Of a DNA stretch of 64,000 nt, positions 2,093 to 61,255 are shown piece by piece; positions within the stretch are counted from its first letter, which is position 1, and each line of letters starts with the position of its first letter. Position numbers and translations under genes: made by a program. The notes beneath the pieces are model-generated. The model did no database searches, was not told where the DNA came from, and was given only the letters and a program-made list of their open reading frames with translations. Where the stretch lies: the sequence record OR062527; one strand, given 5' to 3'. The stretch is from Escherichia phage vB_EcoM_11B_SA_NWU.

Positions 2093-3744
<1,652 letters not shown>

Positions 3745-3745
<1 letters not shown>

Positions 3746-3987
3746 TGGAAGGTTTAATTGAAGCTATTAAATCAAACGACCTCGTAGCCGCTCGTAAATT
3801 ATTTGCTGAAGCCATGGCTGCAAGAACGACTGATTTAATTAAAGAAGAAAAAATCACTATCGCTCGTAATTTCTTAATCGAAGGTGAAGAACCTGATGAC
3901 GAGGATGAAGATGACGACGAAGATAGCGATGATGATAAAGACGACAAAAAAGACAAAGACTCTGACGAAGACGAGGATGATGAATAA
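3745..3987 (+). CDS. 67: Prohead core protein gp67 with acidic C-terminal tail
   Basis: 80 aa, D/E-rich C-terminus; position between 20 and 68. Confidence 0.8.
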
Positions 3988-4412
3988 TGATTCTAATCCC
4001 TGAAACTCATGAATTAGTTCTCGAGAATGTCGAAGCACTTATTCCTGAAGCACAGGGTCGCTTTGACGAGTTGTCTTCTGCTTTAAATAAAGACGATATA
4101 AATACAATTATCGAGAATATGCTTGATGATGAAACCGATTTAGCGATTGCATTAGCTTCTATTAATGAAAATATGCCGTTAAATGAATTCATCGTTAAAC
4201 ATGTTTCTGCCCGTGGTGAAATTACTCGCACTAAAGATCGCAAAACCCGCGAACGTAATGCATTTCAAACTACCGGGTTGTCTAAAGCAAAACGTAGACA
4301 AATTGCTCGTAAAGCTACCAAAACGAAGATTGCCAATCCAGCAGGTCAATCTCGTGCTCAGCGTAAGCGTAAAAAAGCTCTCAAACGCCGTAAAGCATTA
4401 GGATTAAGCTAA
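3987..4412 (+). CDS. 68: Prohead core protein gp68
   Basis: 141 aa, basic C-terminus; ATGA overlap with gene 67; T4 order. Confidence 0.8.
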
Positions 4413-5050
4413 TGAATGAACCCCAATTGCTAATTGAAACTTGGGGTCAACCTGGCGAAATTATTGATGGTGTACCAATGCTTGAATCTCACGATGGGAA
4501 AGACTTAGGTTTAAAACCTGGTTTATACATCGAAGGAATATTCATGCAAGCAGAAGTCGTCAATAGAAATAAACGTCTTTATCCAAAACGTATATTAGAA
4601 AAAGCGGTAAAAGACTATATTAATGAGCAAGTTTTAACTAAACAAGCTCTCGGAGAATTAAATCATCCTCCACGCGCTAATGTTGACCCGATGCAAGCCG
4701 CTATCATTATAGAAGATATGTGGTGGAAAGGAAATGACGTATACGGACGAGCTCGTGTTATTGAAGGTGACCATGGTCCTGGAGATAAATTAGCAGCTAA
4801 TATTCGTGCCGGATGGATTCCAGGAGTTTCTTCTCGTGGATTAGGTTCATTGACTGACACAAATAAAGGTTATCGTATCGTAAACGAAGGATTCAAATTA
4901 ACTGTAGGTGTTGATGCAGTATGGGGTCCAAGTGCTCCAGATGCATGGGTAACTCCTAAGGAAATTACTGAATCACAGACGGCGGAAGCCGATACAAGTG
5001 CCGATGACGCCTATATGGCTCTCGCAGAGGCCATGAAAAAAGCGTTATAA
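4412..5050 (+). CDS. 21: Prohead core protease gp21
   Basis: 212 aa as T4 gp21; position before gene 22. Confidence 0.9.
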   Translation: MNEPQLLIETWGQPGEIIDGVPMLESHDGKDLGLKPGLYIEGIFMQAEVVNRNKRLYPKRILEKAVKDYINEQVLTKQALGELNHPPRANVDPMQAAIIIEDMWWKGNDVYGRARVIEGDHGPGDKLAANIRAGWIPGVSSRGLGSLTDTNKGYRIVNEGFKLTVGVDAVWGPSAPDAWVTPKEITESQTAEADTSADDAYMALAEAMKKAL

Positions 5051-22749: not shown

Positions 22750-22753
22750 CAAT

Positions 22754-22780
22754 GGGGACCGAAAGGTCCCCATATTTTTA
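22754..22780 (+). terminator. Terminator after gene 54 (ggggacc-GAAA-ggtcccc plus T-rich tract)
   Basis: 7-bp GC stem followed by atatttttattt; between convergent transcription units. Confidence 0.65.
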
Positions 22781-23068
22781 TTTACGGAATGAAATAAAAG
22801 CAGCAACTGAAGCAACAGAGGTTTCTTCAATATAAACCTCAATTTTTACCGGAGCTTCTGACTCAAATTTACCTGTTACTACACCTTGGAAAATACTTTC
22901 AGTCTGTTCTGGCTTTGAAAAATTTTCAGAAGGAAAAATTCCAAACTTTTTATCGGTTCCGAAAATTTTAATAAATTCATCATAAACTGCTTCATTGAAA
23001 GCGTTATCAGCGGGAATAACGCCTTCAACGACGAGTTCTTGACCTAAAAAGCGCAAAGAAGATTTCAT
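22778..23068 (-). CDS. Hypothetical protein, positional equivalent of alt.-3
   Basis: 96-aa ORF with own promoter and SD gagga. Confidence 0.6.
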   Translation of the reverse strand: MKSSLRFLGQELVVEGVIPADNAFNEAVYDEFIKIFGTDKKFGIFPSENFSKPEQTESIFQGVVTGKFESEAPVKIEVYIEETSVASVAAFISFRK

Positions 23069-23099: not shown

Positions 23100-23128
23100 A
23101 CTATAACACAATACGAGGGACTTGTAAA
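23100..23128 (-). promoter_or_regulatory. Early sigma70-type promoter: -35 TTTACA, 17-nt spacer, -10 TATAGT
   Basis: Minus strand GTTTACAagtccctcgtattgtgtTATAGT; near-identical copy upstream of alc. Confidence 0.55.
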
Positions 23129-25186
23129 CTACATTTTGAACTTTTTAGACATTCTGTTGATGTTAACCAAAGAAGCTAAGATTTGAGAAACTTCGCTTTC
23201 CTCTTCTTTTGATTCTTCTACAAGGAATTGATTAAATCCAGCCATTGGACGAACTTCACCAGTTTCCATTAGATGGTCACCATCATATACCGATTCCTCT
23301 AATTGTTCAGAAGGAGGAACAATCGTGCCTTCAATTAGATACTTATTATAAGCGGTTTCTTTCATCATGTACGTACTTACTTTATTAATCTTCAGTAAAA
23401 TTCCACGCGGCAAAATAACTTCAGCTTCGGATGGAAATCCTGATAAATGACCCGGAACGATAACTTTAACTCGTTCAGCTCCTTTAATTACCATACCTAC
23501 ATTAGTTTCAGCGTCTTCATTCGCATATGTAGAATGACTACCCATATGCATTAAATCTTCAGCATCAACTGAACCTTCTCCTTCACCAGAAAATACTGTT
23601 CCAGCGTCATCTAAAGCCATATAATTTTTACCATATTCACCGAAGATATTTGGCTTGAGTGAAGTAGATACAAAGTTCTTGAAATAGAACATTTTATTTT
23701 CTATATTATGACGTAAAGTTTTAAAAGTAACTTCTTGGCCACGGTAAAGTGTAGTTCCCGGAGGAAGAACTGAACCTTTAGCAAATGCAGAATCCAACGT
23801 CTCAATGTGCTTAATAGCACGTTCCATATATTCTTCACGTGTAGAATCAGGTTTACCTAAAAGGAACGAGTTCATTTCAACATATGAATCTGCGCAATAA
23901 TCTTCAATTACATCAGACTCAGCCTGAGTTAATCCTTTTGGAGTTACTTCAGTGCTTGCATATTCATATGCCTGAGCAGCAGATTCATCAATTAATTTAT
24001 AAATTCCATTCATTACAAATTGAATAATAGCTGTCTTTTCATCTGGTGTAGCTTTAGAACCTTTAACTAAATCATTGACAATTTTCTTAATAACATCAAA
24101 GCTATTAGAAATATTAATGTCAGCAAGATCGCTTAAAATTTTATCAGTTTTATAATCAAAGAATTCTTTATTCTTTAAATATTCTTGAGAACCTTGATAT
24201 GTTATATCGCTCTGCAGCTTGATAGATGGATCGCGTAAACGTGCATGGGCCAATGCAATATGATTTCGGAAGCTTTCGAGTTCATAATCACTAGATTTAA
24301 AACGAGAAGCACTTCTCATACCACCGATAGCTCCTTTGCTAAAGTTTGAACCAACCTGAATAACGCCAGAGTTCATTGGTCCTTCTGCTTTATATACCGG
24401 AACTTTAGATTCAAACTCTTGATATTTCTTAGCAGCGAAGCTATCACCCTGAAGTGAAGCATCAACAGTAGAATATTGAGCTTGTGCTGCTAATCGACGA
24501 CTAATTTTAGTTTTCTGAATAACAGCTTGATCCGTGCGCTTATCATTTTCTAAAGCAATAGAAGCAGCAACAGCAACAGCTTTAGGAACAGCATTACCTG
24601 TTTTAACGTCTACATAAACATCACCAACCTTTGATTCAACTTTTGTGAATAACTCGGTTGAAATAGGAGGTACACCTGGAATGTCTTCTAAATTGGCATT
24701 TTTACGGTAAACCATAATATATGCGTACTTTTTATCATAATCCCAGATTTCCTTTAAAAGAACATATCGACCTGCTCCTTTAGTACGTACTAAACGGTCA
24801 GCAATAACTTGCATTTGACGAGCTGCGCCATTTGTTTTACTTTTTAGTACGCGGAATAGGCATGCATCAATTTTATACTGCTTCATTGTTTGAAGAGCAG
24901 TATCAAAAACAGCATTAATGACGCCAATTGGATTTCCACCCAAGTTTTTAAGCTTAACTAATGATAGTTTCTCATTAACACCTATCATTACGATATGCAT
25001 CATTTTGTCGCCTGGCTTAACGTTTTTATTCGTATCACCGCCAGAGGTGTATGTACAAAATCTAAATCCAGGAAGCACGCTTTCTTCACCTGCTTGAATA
25101 GCAAAAATTTGAGGTATTTTATGCTTAGGATTTAAGTTAACAACCGGCGCCGAAGCGCCGTCAAATAATTCTGTAATAAGTTCCAT
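23129..25186 (-). CDS. Alt-like ADP-ribosyltransferase paralog (685 aa)
   Basis: N-terminus MELITELFD..., ART motifs YRG, FVSTSL and SEAEVILPRG; paralogous to adjacent alt. Confidence 0.8.
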   Translation of the reverse strand: MELITELFDGASAPVVNLNPKHKIPQIFAIQAGEESVLPGFRFCTYTSGGDTNKNVKPGDKMMHIVMIGVNEKLSLVKLKNLGGNPIGVINAVFDTALQTMKQYKIDACLFRVLKSKTNGAARQMQVIADRLVRTKGAGRYVLLKEIWDYDKKYAYIMVYRKNANLEDIPGVPPISTELFTKVESKVGDVYVDVKTGNAVPKAVAVAASIALENDKRTDQAVIQKTKISRRLAAQAQYSTVDASLQGDSFAAKKYQEFESKVPVYKAEGPMNSGVIQVGSNFSKGAIGGMRSASRFKSSDYELESFRNHIALAHARLRDPSIKLQSDITYQGSQEYLKNKEFFDYKTDKILSDLADINISNSFDVIKKIVNDLVKGSKATPDEKTAIIQFVMNGIYKLIDESAAQAYEYASTEVTPKGLTQAESDVIEDYCADSYVEMNSFLLGKPDSTREEYMERAIKHIETLDSAFAKGSVLPPGTTLYRGQEVTFKTLRHNIENKMFYFKNFVSTSLKPNIFGEYGKNYMALDDAGTVFSGEGEGSVDAEDLMHMGSHSTYANEDAETNVGMVIKGAERVKVIVPGHLSGFPSEAEVILPRGILLKINKVSTYMMKETAYNKYLIEGTIVPPSEQLEESVYDGDHLMETGEVRPMAGFNQFLVEESKEEESEVSQILASLVNINRMSKKFKM

Positions 25187-25189
25187 GAT

Positions 25190-27283
25190 TTATCCTTGAA
25201 CGAACTTGTAAGGCATGTTTGTAATATCTATGCAAGACGCAATAATTCCAAGAGATGATTCTACTTTCTGTTTAATATTTGATGAAACAAATGATGCAAA
25301 GTCAACTCTGTCTTCTATTTCAATATCACCTGTCATTGCAACCAATTCACCAGTTTCCATTAAATGGTCTCCGTCATAGATTACCGATTCGGTGAGCTCT
25401 TCTGTGGTCATAACTTCAGCTTGAATGAGTTTTGTATTATTAGATGTTGTTCCGTCATTATTAGAAGCATCAGTTATTTTATTAACCTTGACCATCAATC
25501 CGCGTGGTAGAATAACTTCAGCTTCTGTTGCTATTCCGAGACTTCCTGGATATACAACATTAACTTTATGAGCTCCATCAATTGCCCATCCTATTTGAAC
25601 TTTAACATATTCAGGATTTTCTTTATACGCTCTTATTTCGTTTGGATTAATAGTTATTCCTTCTTCATTTTTATCAACTGTTAATTCATTGCGAGCTTCT
25701 GGTTCTAAAAGACCAATACCAGCATGTGTGATTCCAAAACGTCCAAAAATGATAGGAGTTAAAGAAGTAGATACAAAATTTCTGAAGTAGAACACTTTAT
25801 TTTTAACTAACGCTTCATATATAGGAGCAGTCATACTTTGAGCACGATAAACTGTAATGCCTTCTGGTATACGGTCACCATTTTCAAAAGCTGAATCTAA
25901 GTTATTTATAGCAGATTCAATTTCTTTTTCACTCATTACATCGTATCGTTCTGGATTGTAACGACCTAAAAGAAGATTATTGATGTCAGTATATCCTGAA
26001 CCGCAATATTCTCTAATGCCACGCTTTTGTGATGGAGTATATTTAGAACCATCGCGTGCAATAGTAATATCAATCATTGGACCAGCACCAATTCCAGAAA
26101 AACTGTAAATCATTCGTTTGAGGAATTTAGTTTTTGTTGCGTTCCAGGAATTTTTAGTTATTTCTTCCCAGACTTCATCTGATTGTCCTTTACGATTTTT
26201 ATTATGATTAGCAAGCCATTTATCTTTATAATCTTCAAAGAATTGATTTACAGCTGCTGCGTATTTCTCTAAACATTTTATTGAAGTAGTTGGTTCATTT
26301 TTAATTGCATTAAAAATTACTTCTTTAATTTTTTCTGAAACTTCACCGACTTGACTCATTGGAAAGAATTTATAATCATAGTGAAGTTCATCTGCCGTTC
26401 CTTCGGCAATAATTTTTGCTGCCTTTGTTTTAGAAGCTAATGAATTAATTCCAATTTTCATTTCTTCTGCTTCGGGAATTAAAGGTGCAGTAGCTGGTTT
26501 ATTAAAATTGGCTGCTGTAGATTCATACTTCTGGAATAATTCACTTTCAAATCTAGAAGATTCCAATGACTGACTTTGTGCAATTGCTCTACGGGAAATT
26601 TTAACTTTAACGATTACAGCTTGGTCAGAACGTTTATCATTTTCTTGTGCAATAGATGCTGCAATTGCCTCATTTTTAGTTACTTGAGCACCAGTATCTT
26701 TATTGATATAAACATCACCGACCTTCGATTCAACTTTAGTAAAGAGCTCTGTACTAATTTCCGGAACTCCTGGAATGTCTTCTAGTGATACATTTTTGCG
26801 ATGTATAAGAATATATGCATACTTTTTATCGTAATCCCAGAGTTCCTTAAGAAGGACGTATCTGCCACCTGAACGACTGCGGATGAGTCTATCAGCAATA
26901 AGTTGAATTTGTCGAGCTTGACCGGCGGTTTTAGACTTAAGAATACGAAGCATACAGGCATCAATTTTATATTGACGCATTGTTTGCATTGCAACAGTAA
27001 AAACAGAATTGATATAATTAATCGGGCTTGGACCAAGACCTTTTAATTTAGCAATTGAACCTTTAGCAGTTAATGTAAAAGGAACAATATGCATCATTTT
27101 GTCGCCCATCTTTAAATCACGATTAGTATCACCTCCAGATGTATAGGTACATAAACGAAAGCCTGGTTGTTCAATTGCATCATCAACATGAACTGAAAAA
27201 ATTTGTGGTATTTTCTTCTTTGGATTTAAGTTTGTAATCGGAAGAGTAGTATCTTCGTCAAATAATTCTGTAATAAGTTCCAT
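25190..27283 (-). CDS. alt: Alt, capsid-packaged ADP-ribosyltransferase (697 aa)
   Basis: Size close to T4 Alt (682 aa); R / STS / ExE-type motifs; late promoter upstream; adjacent to gene 30. Confidence 0.8.
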   Translation of the reverse strand: MELITELFDEDTTLPITNLNPKKKIPQIFSVHVDDAIEQPGFRLCTYTSGGDTNRDLKMGDKMMHIVPFTLTAKGSIAKLKGLGPSPINYINSVFTVAMQTMRQYKIDACMLRILKSKTAGQARQIQLIADRLIRSRSGGRYVLLKELWDYDKKYAYILIHRKNVSLEDIPGVPEISTELFTKVESKVGDVYINKDTGAQVTKNEAIAASIAQENDKRSDQAVIVKVKISRRAIAQSQSLESSRFESELFQKYESTAANFNKPATAPLIPEAEEMKIGINSLASKTKAAKIIAEGTADELHYDYKFFPMSQVGEVSEKIKEVIFNAIKNEPTTSIKCLEKYAAAVNQFFEDYKDKWLANHNKNRKGQSDEVWEEITKNSWNATKTKFLKRMIYSFSGIGAGPMIDITIARDGSKYTPSQKRGIREYCGSGYTDINNLLLGRYNPERYDVMSEKEIESAINNLDSAFENGDRIPEGITVYRAQSMTAPIYEALVKNKVFYFRNFVSTSLTPIIFGRFGITHAGIGLLEPEARNELTVDKNEEGITINPNEIRAYKENPEYVKVQIGWAIDGAHKVNVVYPGSLGIATEAEVILPRGLMVKVNKITDASNNDGTTSNNTKLIQAEVMTTEELTESVIYDGDHLMETGELVAMTGDIEIEDRVDFASFVSSNIKQKVESSLGIIASCIDITNMPYKFVQG

Positions 27284-27306
27284 GTTATCCTCTCTAGTGT
27301 TTATTC

Positions 27307-27314
27307 TATTTATA
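27307..27314 (-). promoter_or_regulatory. Late promoter core TATAAATA (minus strand) for alt
   Basis: Plus tatttata, 23 nt upstream of alt ATG. Confidence 0.55.
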
Positions 27315-27319
27315 AAATT

Positions 27320-27337
27320 AAAGGCCCGAAGGCCTTT
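27320..27337. other. Hairpin aaaggcc-CGAA-ggccttt between the 61-aa ORF and the alt late promoter
   Basis: 7-bp stem read directly; may terminate or attenuate upstream early transcripts. Confidence 0.4.
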
Positions 27338-27339
27338 AA

Positions 27340-27525
27340 TTAATAGAGAGCTAAAAGAGTACGATATACTTCAAACTTTGGACCTTTTTCATATGGATCA
27401 AATCTTTCCGTGAATTCATCATATGCTAGTTTATCTGGGAATTCAAGAATAACCTGCGATACCGCAGTGGAAACATCTCCACCTTCTTTTTGAGCCACGA
27501 CAATTGTTTCTAAGTAAGCTTTCAT
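27340..27525 (-). CDS. Hypothetical small protein (61 aa)
   Basis: ORF overlapping gene 30 stop by 4 nt. Confidence 0.5.
   Translation of the reverse strand: MKAYLETIVVAQKEGGDVSTAVSQVILEFPDKLAYDEFTERFDPYEKGPKFEVYRTLLALY

Positions 27526-57132: not shown

Positions 57133-61255
<4,123 letters not shown>

Follow-up and report, generated by a model that had tools for sequence, protein, structure and literature searches.

What does a T-even phage gain from two adjacent genes for Alt-like enzymes, a larger dose of one activity or two different activities? Textbooks use Alt to illustrate how a phage enzyme that enters the cell along with the DNA can reprogram its host, and knowledge about Alt comes nearly entirely from phage T4. 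The question is raised here by Escherichia phage vB_EcoM_11B_SA_NWU (record OR062527), of which a window of 64,000 nt was analyzed; all coordinates refer to this whole window. It contains two co-oriented, adjacent open reading frames (ORFs) on the minus strand, and the ORF list places them exactly where a preliminary description made from the sequence had put them, at 25190..27283 (697 amino acids, aa) and 23129..25186 (685 aa). They are called altA and altB here, and their products AltA and AltB. We consider it probable that altA and altB form a late operon, that both products are ADP-ribosyltransferases (ARTs) of the Alt family which are packaged, trimmed by the prohead protease gp21 and injected, and that the substrate range of AltB is partly different from that of AltA.

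Paralogy and catalytic motifs

AltA and AltB are clear paralogs, as had been claimed. Their BLASTP alignment covers both proteins at full length (719 columns) with 41 % identity and an E-value of 9e-162. Both match phrog_802 from end to end (AltA aa 1-696, E-value 2.5e-272; AltB aa 1-685, E-value 3.2e-256), and the Pfam family PF03496 (ADPrib_exo_Tox) covers aa 378-627 of AltA (E-value 1e-37) and aa 416-620 of AltB (E-value 5e-20). According to precomputed Pfam hits, PF26846 (Tevenvirinae_ADPRT) and PF03496 occur together in homologs of AltB at 88-98 % identity. NCBIfam provided no model for AltA or AltB.

The ART motifs listed in the preliminary description (YRG/YRA, FVSTSL and SEAEVILPRG/TEAEVILPRG) are all present as quoted, with the R, S-T-S and E-x-E residues intact in both proteins. 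In the alignment, the catalytic arginine of AltA is Arg480 in a YRA context (25844..25846, minus strand, as for all motifs of the two genes), followed by S505-T-S507 (25763..25771) and the ExE motif E587-A-E589 (25517..25525). The corresponding residues of AltB are Arg482 in a YRG context (23741..23743), S507-T-S509 (23660..23668) and E587-A-E589 (23420..23428), the last being preceded by F584 as the aromatic residue of the ADP-ribosylating turn-turn (ARTT) motif. The arginine, both serines of S-T-S and both glutamates of ExE are invariant in 14 diverse family members. An ExE in the ARTT motif denotes an arginine-type acceptor, as in Vis and iota toxin. The second glutamate of the AltA motif aligns with the one mutated in the E577A variant of T4 Alt, in which ADP-ribosylation is abolished (PMC11404850). 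Judged at the level of sequence, AltA and AltB are members of the T-even Alt family by profile, catalytic residues, gp21 motifs, and locus with late promoter.

AltA as the ortholog of T4 Alt

The comparison with T4 that the preliminary description recommended pairs AltA with T4 Alt and AltB with alt.-1/alt.-2. T4 Alt (gene alt, 682 aa; NP_049811) resembles AltA in its locus between alt.1/gene 30 and gene 54, its late promoter and the hairpin, and the two proteins have the gp21 sites ITE-6 and LTE as well as the R/STS/ExE residues in common. They differ in length (682 versus 697 aa), and divergence affects the helical region in the center and large parts of the ART domain. An overall identity of 72 % is composed of about 97-100 % in aa 1-245 and approximately 600-697 and of 15-60 % in the center and ART part (approximately aa 250-590), where it drops to as low as 15-35 %. 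The synonymous divergence (dS) between AltA and T4 alt follows the same course, with 0.12 in the N-domain, 0.22 at the C-terminal end and about 1.3, which is saturated, in the middle. Both profiles indicate that AltA belongs to an allele class distinct from that of T4, and they indicate an old cassette exchange of its catalytic half relative to T4. AltA is, on this evidence, the ortholog of T4 Alt, a mosaic relative to it and a member of an old, distinct allele class. Substrate data obtained with T4 Alt may not be fully transferable to it.

This allele type is widespread. AltA is 97 % identical to its T6 counterpart, and the 697-aa type occurs at an identity of at least 90 % in 315 phage records, including T2, T6 and RB5, while 212 records lie at 60-80 % identity to AltA, the band that holds the 682-aa type of T4. 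In phage phiC600P9, an AltA of the T4 type occurs next to an intact AltB, which shows that the allele type of AltA and the presence of AltB vary independently.

AltB, its remnant in T4 and the age of the duplication

The translation of T4 alt.-1/alt.-2 matches AltB from residue 1 to about 117, and phrog_23015 and phrog_15247, which match AltB at aa 1-56 and 62-117, correspond to this alt.-1/alt.-2 region. A note in the T4 GenBank record describes alt.-1/alt.-2 as a duplication of the alt start that is interrupted by a stop codon. In the DNA comparison, T4 lacks the equivalent of window positions 23149-24838 (about 1.7 kb) and has in-frame stops. The T4 remnant lies at the same position as altB and has an identical altA/altB junction, whereas altB in the window is whole and under selection. 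AltB is thus the intact form of a gene that survives in T4 as a remnant only.

Among 502 records, 91 have the T4-type deletion, which is thus the minority state, and AltB occurs at an identity of at least 90 % in about 401 phage records, including T2 and T6. These two phages have an intact pair of 2094 and 2058 nt, with the second gene annotated as 'hypothetical protein'; RB5 labels the counterpart of AltB 'alt.-2'. The whole 4.9-kb alt locus is 99 % identical to that of phage ECP52 and at least 90 % identical to several hundred GenBank genomes, and 368 of its 542 matching database records cover at least 80 % of the locus. Both genes are often annotated, as 'Alt-like RNA polymerase ADP-ribosyltransferase', 'alt_1/alt_2' or 'NAD(+)--arginine ADP-ribosyltransferase (x2)'. 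The tandem pair is therefore already known and ordinary for the T-even group: near-identical or identical pairs have been deposited and annotated, the T4 annotation and Nolan et al. 2006 describe the duplication, and Pfam has a Tevenvirinae_ADPRT family. Beyond a passing mention in Nolan et al. 2006, no experimental work on the second Alt paralog was found in the literature searched.

As the same gene is a pseudogene remnant in T4, AltB might be suspected of being a decaying or purely structural duplicate without an enzymatic role. The preliminary description had likewise considered that one copy might lack catalytic R/S/E residues, or that both genes might be orthologs of characterized T4 genes. 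AltA alone corresponds to a characterized gene, and the catalytic residues of AltB are intact. In pairwise comparisons among four AltB orthologs, the ratio of nonsynonymous to synonymous divergence (dN/dS) is 0.04-0.065 at a dS of 0.09-0.25, the same range as for AltA within its own allele type (0.04-0.07). By this measure AltB is under strong purifying selection. The intact motifs and a dN/dS of about 0.05 rule out a degenerate duplicate, and a duplicate without any enzymatic role is hardly credible.

The duplication itself is old and not peculiar to the window. In Dhakavirus IME08, two co-oriented genes, alta and altb, stand in tandem at the corresponding locus. Identity to AltA amounts to 66 % for alta, and altb reaches 47 % with AltB and just 33 % with AltA. 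The two genes are orthologous to AltA and AltB, respectively, and AltB is an old paralog that predates the split of Tequatrovirus and Dhakavirus. The Dhakavirus alta is also nearer to the AltA allele of the window (66 %) than to that of T4 (47 %). The IME08 pair differs in belonging to another genus and in its N-terminal propeptides, which begin with MENLNE and are of the L-x-E type. Duplications of alt in T4, RB49 and 44RR have been listed by Nolan et al. 2006 (PMC1524935).

Single-gene chimeras of the two paralogs were also observed. The RefSeq isolate KAW1E185 carries an AltA::AltB chimera (2501-4558 of its locus stretch) that follows AltA up to the ExE region and continues with the C-tail of AltB. 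Three contigs from metagenomes or the Sequence Read Archive (4001 to about 6060 of their locus stretches) start with an AltA N-terminus and switch to AltB for the body of the protein, the cross-overs lying close to aa 50, 180 and 220. Stretches that are identical between altA and altB in the window measure 28 nt at most, at the start codon, and no more than 20 nt elsewhere. Given these short exact identities and the occurrence of one chimera in a RefSeq isolate genome, assembly artifacts or collapse are unlikely, and the chimeras look like real unequal cross-overs between tandem paralogs. The locus thus has at least four states: T6-type AltA with AltB, T4-type AltA with AltB, T4-type AltA with the AltB remnant, and a single chimera.

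Prohead protease sites and probable packaging

Both translations open with MELITELFD, as described beforehand, and the I-x-E site recognized in it is ITE-6, the gp21 cut site of T4 Alt (PMC5694885; X15811 annotation). The motif lies at I4-T-E6 in AltA (27266..27274), where it has an experimental counterpart in T4 Alt (PMC5694885), and, by sequence, at I4-T-E6 in AltB (25169..25177). The counterparts of the C-terminal site LTE-619 of T4 Alt are L630-T-E632 in AltA (25388..25396) and L629-E-E631 in AltB (23294..23302), the latter fitting L-x-E. Glu6 and the glutamate of the C-terminal site are also invariant in the alignment of 14 sequences, and in both proteins the C-terminal site is followed by an invariant YDGDHLMETGE. 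The enzyme expected to cut both Alt proteins, the gp21 prohead protease (Peptidase_S77), is encoded at 4412..5050 on the plus strand.

In T4, gp21 removes 6 residues from Alt at ITE-6 and 63 residues at LTE-619 (PMC5694885; X15811 annotation). About 40 copies of Alt are present in the prohead core and are injected with the DNA (PMC9026906), after which Alt modifies Arg265 of one RNA polymerase alpha subunit and other host proteins and boosts some early promoters about two-fold (PMC2988021). From these parallels we infer that AltA and AltB are packaged, cleaved, injected and active. Their computed masses of about 78 kDa (AltA) and 76 kDa (AltB) would decrease to about 70 and 69 kDa after trimming.

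For mature AltB a lower isoelectric point is predicted than for AltA (6.9 versus 8.05), so that it should be less basic. It could therefore be imagined that AltB is an active ART that is made late, stays out of the head and acts in the producing cell, for instance on proteins of host or phage while particles are assembled, or against late-acting defenses. This is very unlikely, because the first nine residues of AltB, including ITE-6, are the same as in AltA and T4 Alt, its N-domain, presumably the head-core or packaging module, is 67 % identical to that of AltA, and both the C-terminal L-x-E site and the adjoining YDGDHLMETGE are conserved. Such cleavage features are hard to explain in a protein that never meets gp21.

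A discrepancy in residue numbering was noted for T4 Alt. The 'E577' of the literature (PMC11404850) does not match the NC_000866 translation, in which the motif reads E574-M-E576. In T4, RB5, ECO07P5 and phiC600P9, an in-frame ATG directly precedes the annotated alt start (ATGATGGAA), and the window has AAC at this place. The upstream ATG in T4 may explain both this offset and the '7-residue' propeptide of PMC9026906.

Predicted structure

AlphaFold2 models were built from a shallow alignment of 14 sequences and reached a predicted local distance difference test score (pLDDT) of 75.7 for AltB and 73.9 for AltA. Both models have the same layout, with an alpha/beta N-domain (approximately aa 12-235), a long helical region, an ART core (approximately aa 478-625) and a low-confidence C-terminal tail. 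The predicted structures superpose on solved mono-ADP-ribosyltransferases of the R-S-E clade (C2/C3/VIP2-like) with the catalytic motifs aligned. No solved structure of Alt was found; a phmmer search returned distant toxins alone for AltA and nothing for AltB, and a profile search reached C3cer, CPILE-a and Certhrax.

The C3/C2-like ART toxins (Vis, iota Ia, CDTa, VIP2, C3 and Certhrax) have the catalytic fold and the R / S-T-S / (E/Q)-x-E residues in common with the Alt pair, at a sequence identity of just 15-26 %. Unlike these toxins, the Alt proteins have a large insert between STS and ARTT. Delivery differs as well, as Alt is ejected from the phage head and the toxins use a toxin translocon.

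Possible differences in substrate between AltA and AltB

That the paralogs differ most in their central and C-terminal parts, as the preliminary description stated, agrees with the regional identities of the pairwise alignment. Outside the N-domain (the N-terminal 237 aa, with the 67 % given above), identity is 24 % in the central helical region, 26 % in the segment between S-T-S and the ARTT loop, 40 % in the ARTT/ExE part and 29 % in the C-tail. The differences concentrate in regions that set substrate choice in related toxins. In toxins of the C3 and iota type, the substrate is contacted by an aromatic residue that lies three positions ahead of the first E/Q in the ARTT motif. In the profile search this residue is Y in both C3cer ('AYPGQYE') and CPILE-a ('GYKNEYE'). 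The AltB lineage has an aromatic residue at this first turn of the ARTT motif, namely Phe584 in AltB (GFPSEAE) and Tyr in IME08 altb, whereas AltA and IME08 alta have Ile (GIATEAE); T4 Alt reads APSNEME at the turn. A lineage-specific difference that is kept across two genera fits different substrate preferences without proving them, and distinct targets of AltA and AltB are at present speculative.

A simpler explanation would be that AltB is a redundant second dose, which is packaged and injected like AltA, modifies the same substrates (alpha Arg265 and others) and raises the amount or robustness of the alteration. AltA and AltB do have their architecture, propeptides and arginine-type ExE chemistry in common, T4 has lost AltB with no known defect, and the natural single-gene chimeras suggest that one copy can suffice. 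Nevertheless, redundancy is unlikely. The two lineages have been distinct since before the split of Tequatrovirus and Dhakavirus and each is under strong purifying selection, whereas plain dosage copies are normally homogenized or lost. Furthermore, the substrate-facing ART parts are just 24-40 % identical and differ in the turn-1 residue of the ARTT motif. A partly different substrate range of AltB is therefore preferred here.

Within the same phage group, ModA and ModB of T4 likewise belong to the R-S-E clade of ARTs. They are small proteins of about 200 aa. AltA and AltB each have an N-domain and a propeptide at either end. ModA and ModB are described as early products (PMC2988021) and do not enter the cell from the head as Alt does (PMC5512222). 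Arg265 of the alpha subunit is a target of ModA, too (PMC2988021; PMC5512222).

Expression signals and gene anatomy

The late promoter box reported 23 nt before the altA ATG, the T4-type sequence TATAAATA, was found at 27307..27314 on the minus strand. This sequence occurs 18 times in the window, compared to 8.5 expected occurrences. Just upstream of the promoter, a hairpin (AAAGGCC-TTCG-GGCCTTT followed by a T-run; 27320..27337, minus strand) forms the putative terminator of the preceding alt.1/gene 30 unit. The hairpin was read from the sequence and was not listed by a simple terminator scan; the equivalent site is annotated as 'putative transcriptional terminator' in KAW1E185. More informative than this count, the box at altA and its hairpin are both kept in T4, RB5, ECO07P5 and phiC600P9, and the hairpin also in IME08. 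In T4, alt is a late gene according to transcriptome and proteome data (PMC9697503).

Shine-Dalgarno sequences precede both genes, GAGG at 27289..27292 for altA and AAGGA at 25193..25197, within the last altA codons, for altB (both minus strand). The 3-nt distance between the genes proved correct, as ATC separates the altA stop (TAA, 25192-25190) from the altB ATG (25186), and the junction CAAGGATAAATCATG is the same in T4, RB5, ECO07P5 and phiC600P9. No terminator-like site was predicted between altA and altB on the coding strand. The next one is a bidirectional terminator hairpin with a perfect 9-bp stem (22752..22773) between alt.-3 and gene 54, which is annotated as a terminator in KAW1E185 and is likely the end of the altA-altB(-alt.-3) transcript. 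The last gene of this leftward unit is the alt.-3 homolog (22778..23068, minus strand; 96 aa, DUF5498).

Further signals were noted within the unit. A second TATAAATA at 25903-25910 (minus strand), inside altA and about 720 nt upstream of altB, might be taken for a separate late promoter of altB. Its letters code for A-I-N-N, and RB5, phiC600P9 and T4 lack it; it is therefore regarded as a chance occurrence and is probably not a promoter. The 60-nt spacer between altB and alt.-3 contains a sigma70-like sequence (TTTACA-17-TATAGT, with a TG; 23128..23100, minus strand), owing to which alt.-3 may also be expressed early, apart from the late alt transcript. The first 28 nt of altA (27256-27283) are identical to the first 28 nt of altB (25159-25186, both minus strand), despite a synonymous divergence of about 1.5 between the genes over the remaining N-domain. 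This could reflect local gene conversion or a constraint at the nucleotide level on the translation start or the propeptide.

Genomic neighborhood

The window is a Tequatrovirus segment. One side of the alt pair holds gp29, gp48 and gp54, with gp21, gp22 and gp23 further left, and the other side holds the alt.1 homolog, the DNA ligase gp30 and genes 30.1-30.x. The alt.1 homolog (27340-27525, minus strand; 61 aa) matches Pfam PF24647 'Phage_blade' with an E-value of 7e-28, and its frame and the end of the DNA ligase gene overlap by 4 nt. Elsewhere in the window, an ORF of 1103 aa at 57133-60444 (plus strand) follows ORFs of 1289, 371 and 218 aa, an arrangement whose position looks like that of the long tail fiber genes 34-37. 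T4 gp37 has 1026 aa.

Proposed mechanism and points against it

In the mechanism proposed here, transcription would start at the late promoter TATAAATA and run through altA and altB, with altB translated from a separate ribosome-binding site that lies in the last part of altA. Each protein would consist of a MELITE propeptide of 6 residues, the alpha/beta N-domain, the helical region, the ART domain, predicted to be a C3/iota/Vis-like, arginine-specific (ExE) mono-ADP-ribosyltransferase, and an acidic C-terminal propeptide. If they behave like T4 Alt, the two would be built into the prohead core and trimmed by gp21 at ITE-6 and at LTE-632 (AltA) or LEE-631 (AltB). After injection with the DNA, their ADP-ribosylation of host proteins would precede all phage gene expression. 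AltA has a central and catalytic cassette that diverged anciently from that of T4 Alt, and the substrate range of AltB would most likely be partly different from that of AltA. T4 has destroyed its altB by the deletion of about 1.7 kb.

Several points weigh against this mechanism. Co-transcription of altA and altB is deduced from the absence of a predicted terminator. The confidence of the structural models is moderate (pLDDT 74-76), so that comparisons at the level of loops are weak. No virion proteomics, activity assay or mutant of AltB was found in the literature searched. In addition, T4 and about 90 relatives manage without AltB, and alt itself is non-essential in T4 (PMC9026906), for which reasons the contribution of AltB may be small or conditional.

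Implications for T-even phages

As the genes are already annotated, their classification is unchanged, and the remaining interest lies in AltB itself and in the modular variability of the alt locus. The comparison of genomes shows T4 as atypical at this locus: in about four fifths of the sequenced Tequatroviruses there is a second Alt, which is conserved and apparently functional, and in many Tequatroviruses, including the phage of the window, the catalytic half of AltA is strongly unlike that of T4.

A further proposition, which we regard as possible and put forward tentatively, is that in the majority of T-even phages, T2 and T6 among them, two different ARTs rather than one enter the host by injection and that AltB has host targets of its own, for example a component of a defense or toxin-antitoxin system, comparable to MazF in the case of T4 Alt. 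If this is true, the picture of three ARTs derived from T4 would be that of a phage in which one of originally four is gone. Taken with the cassette exchange in AltA and the chimeras, it would turn the alt locus into a stock of injected effectors that recombine and are matched to different hosts. Knowledge of the AltA and AltB ADP-ribosylomes could widen the list of host functions that are hit in the first seconds of infection, and their targets might explain differences in host range or defense sensitivity among T-even phages.

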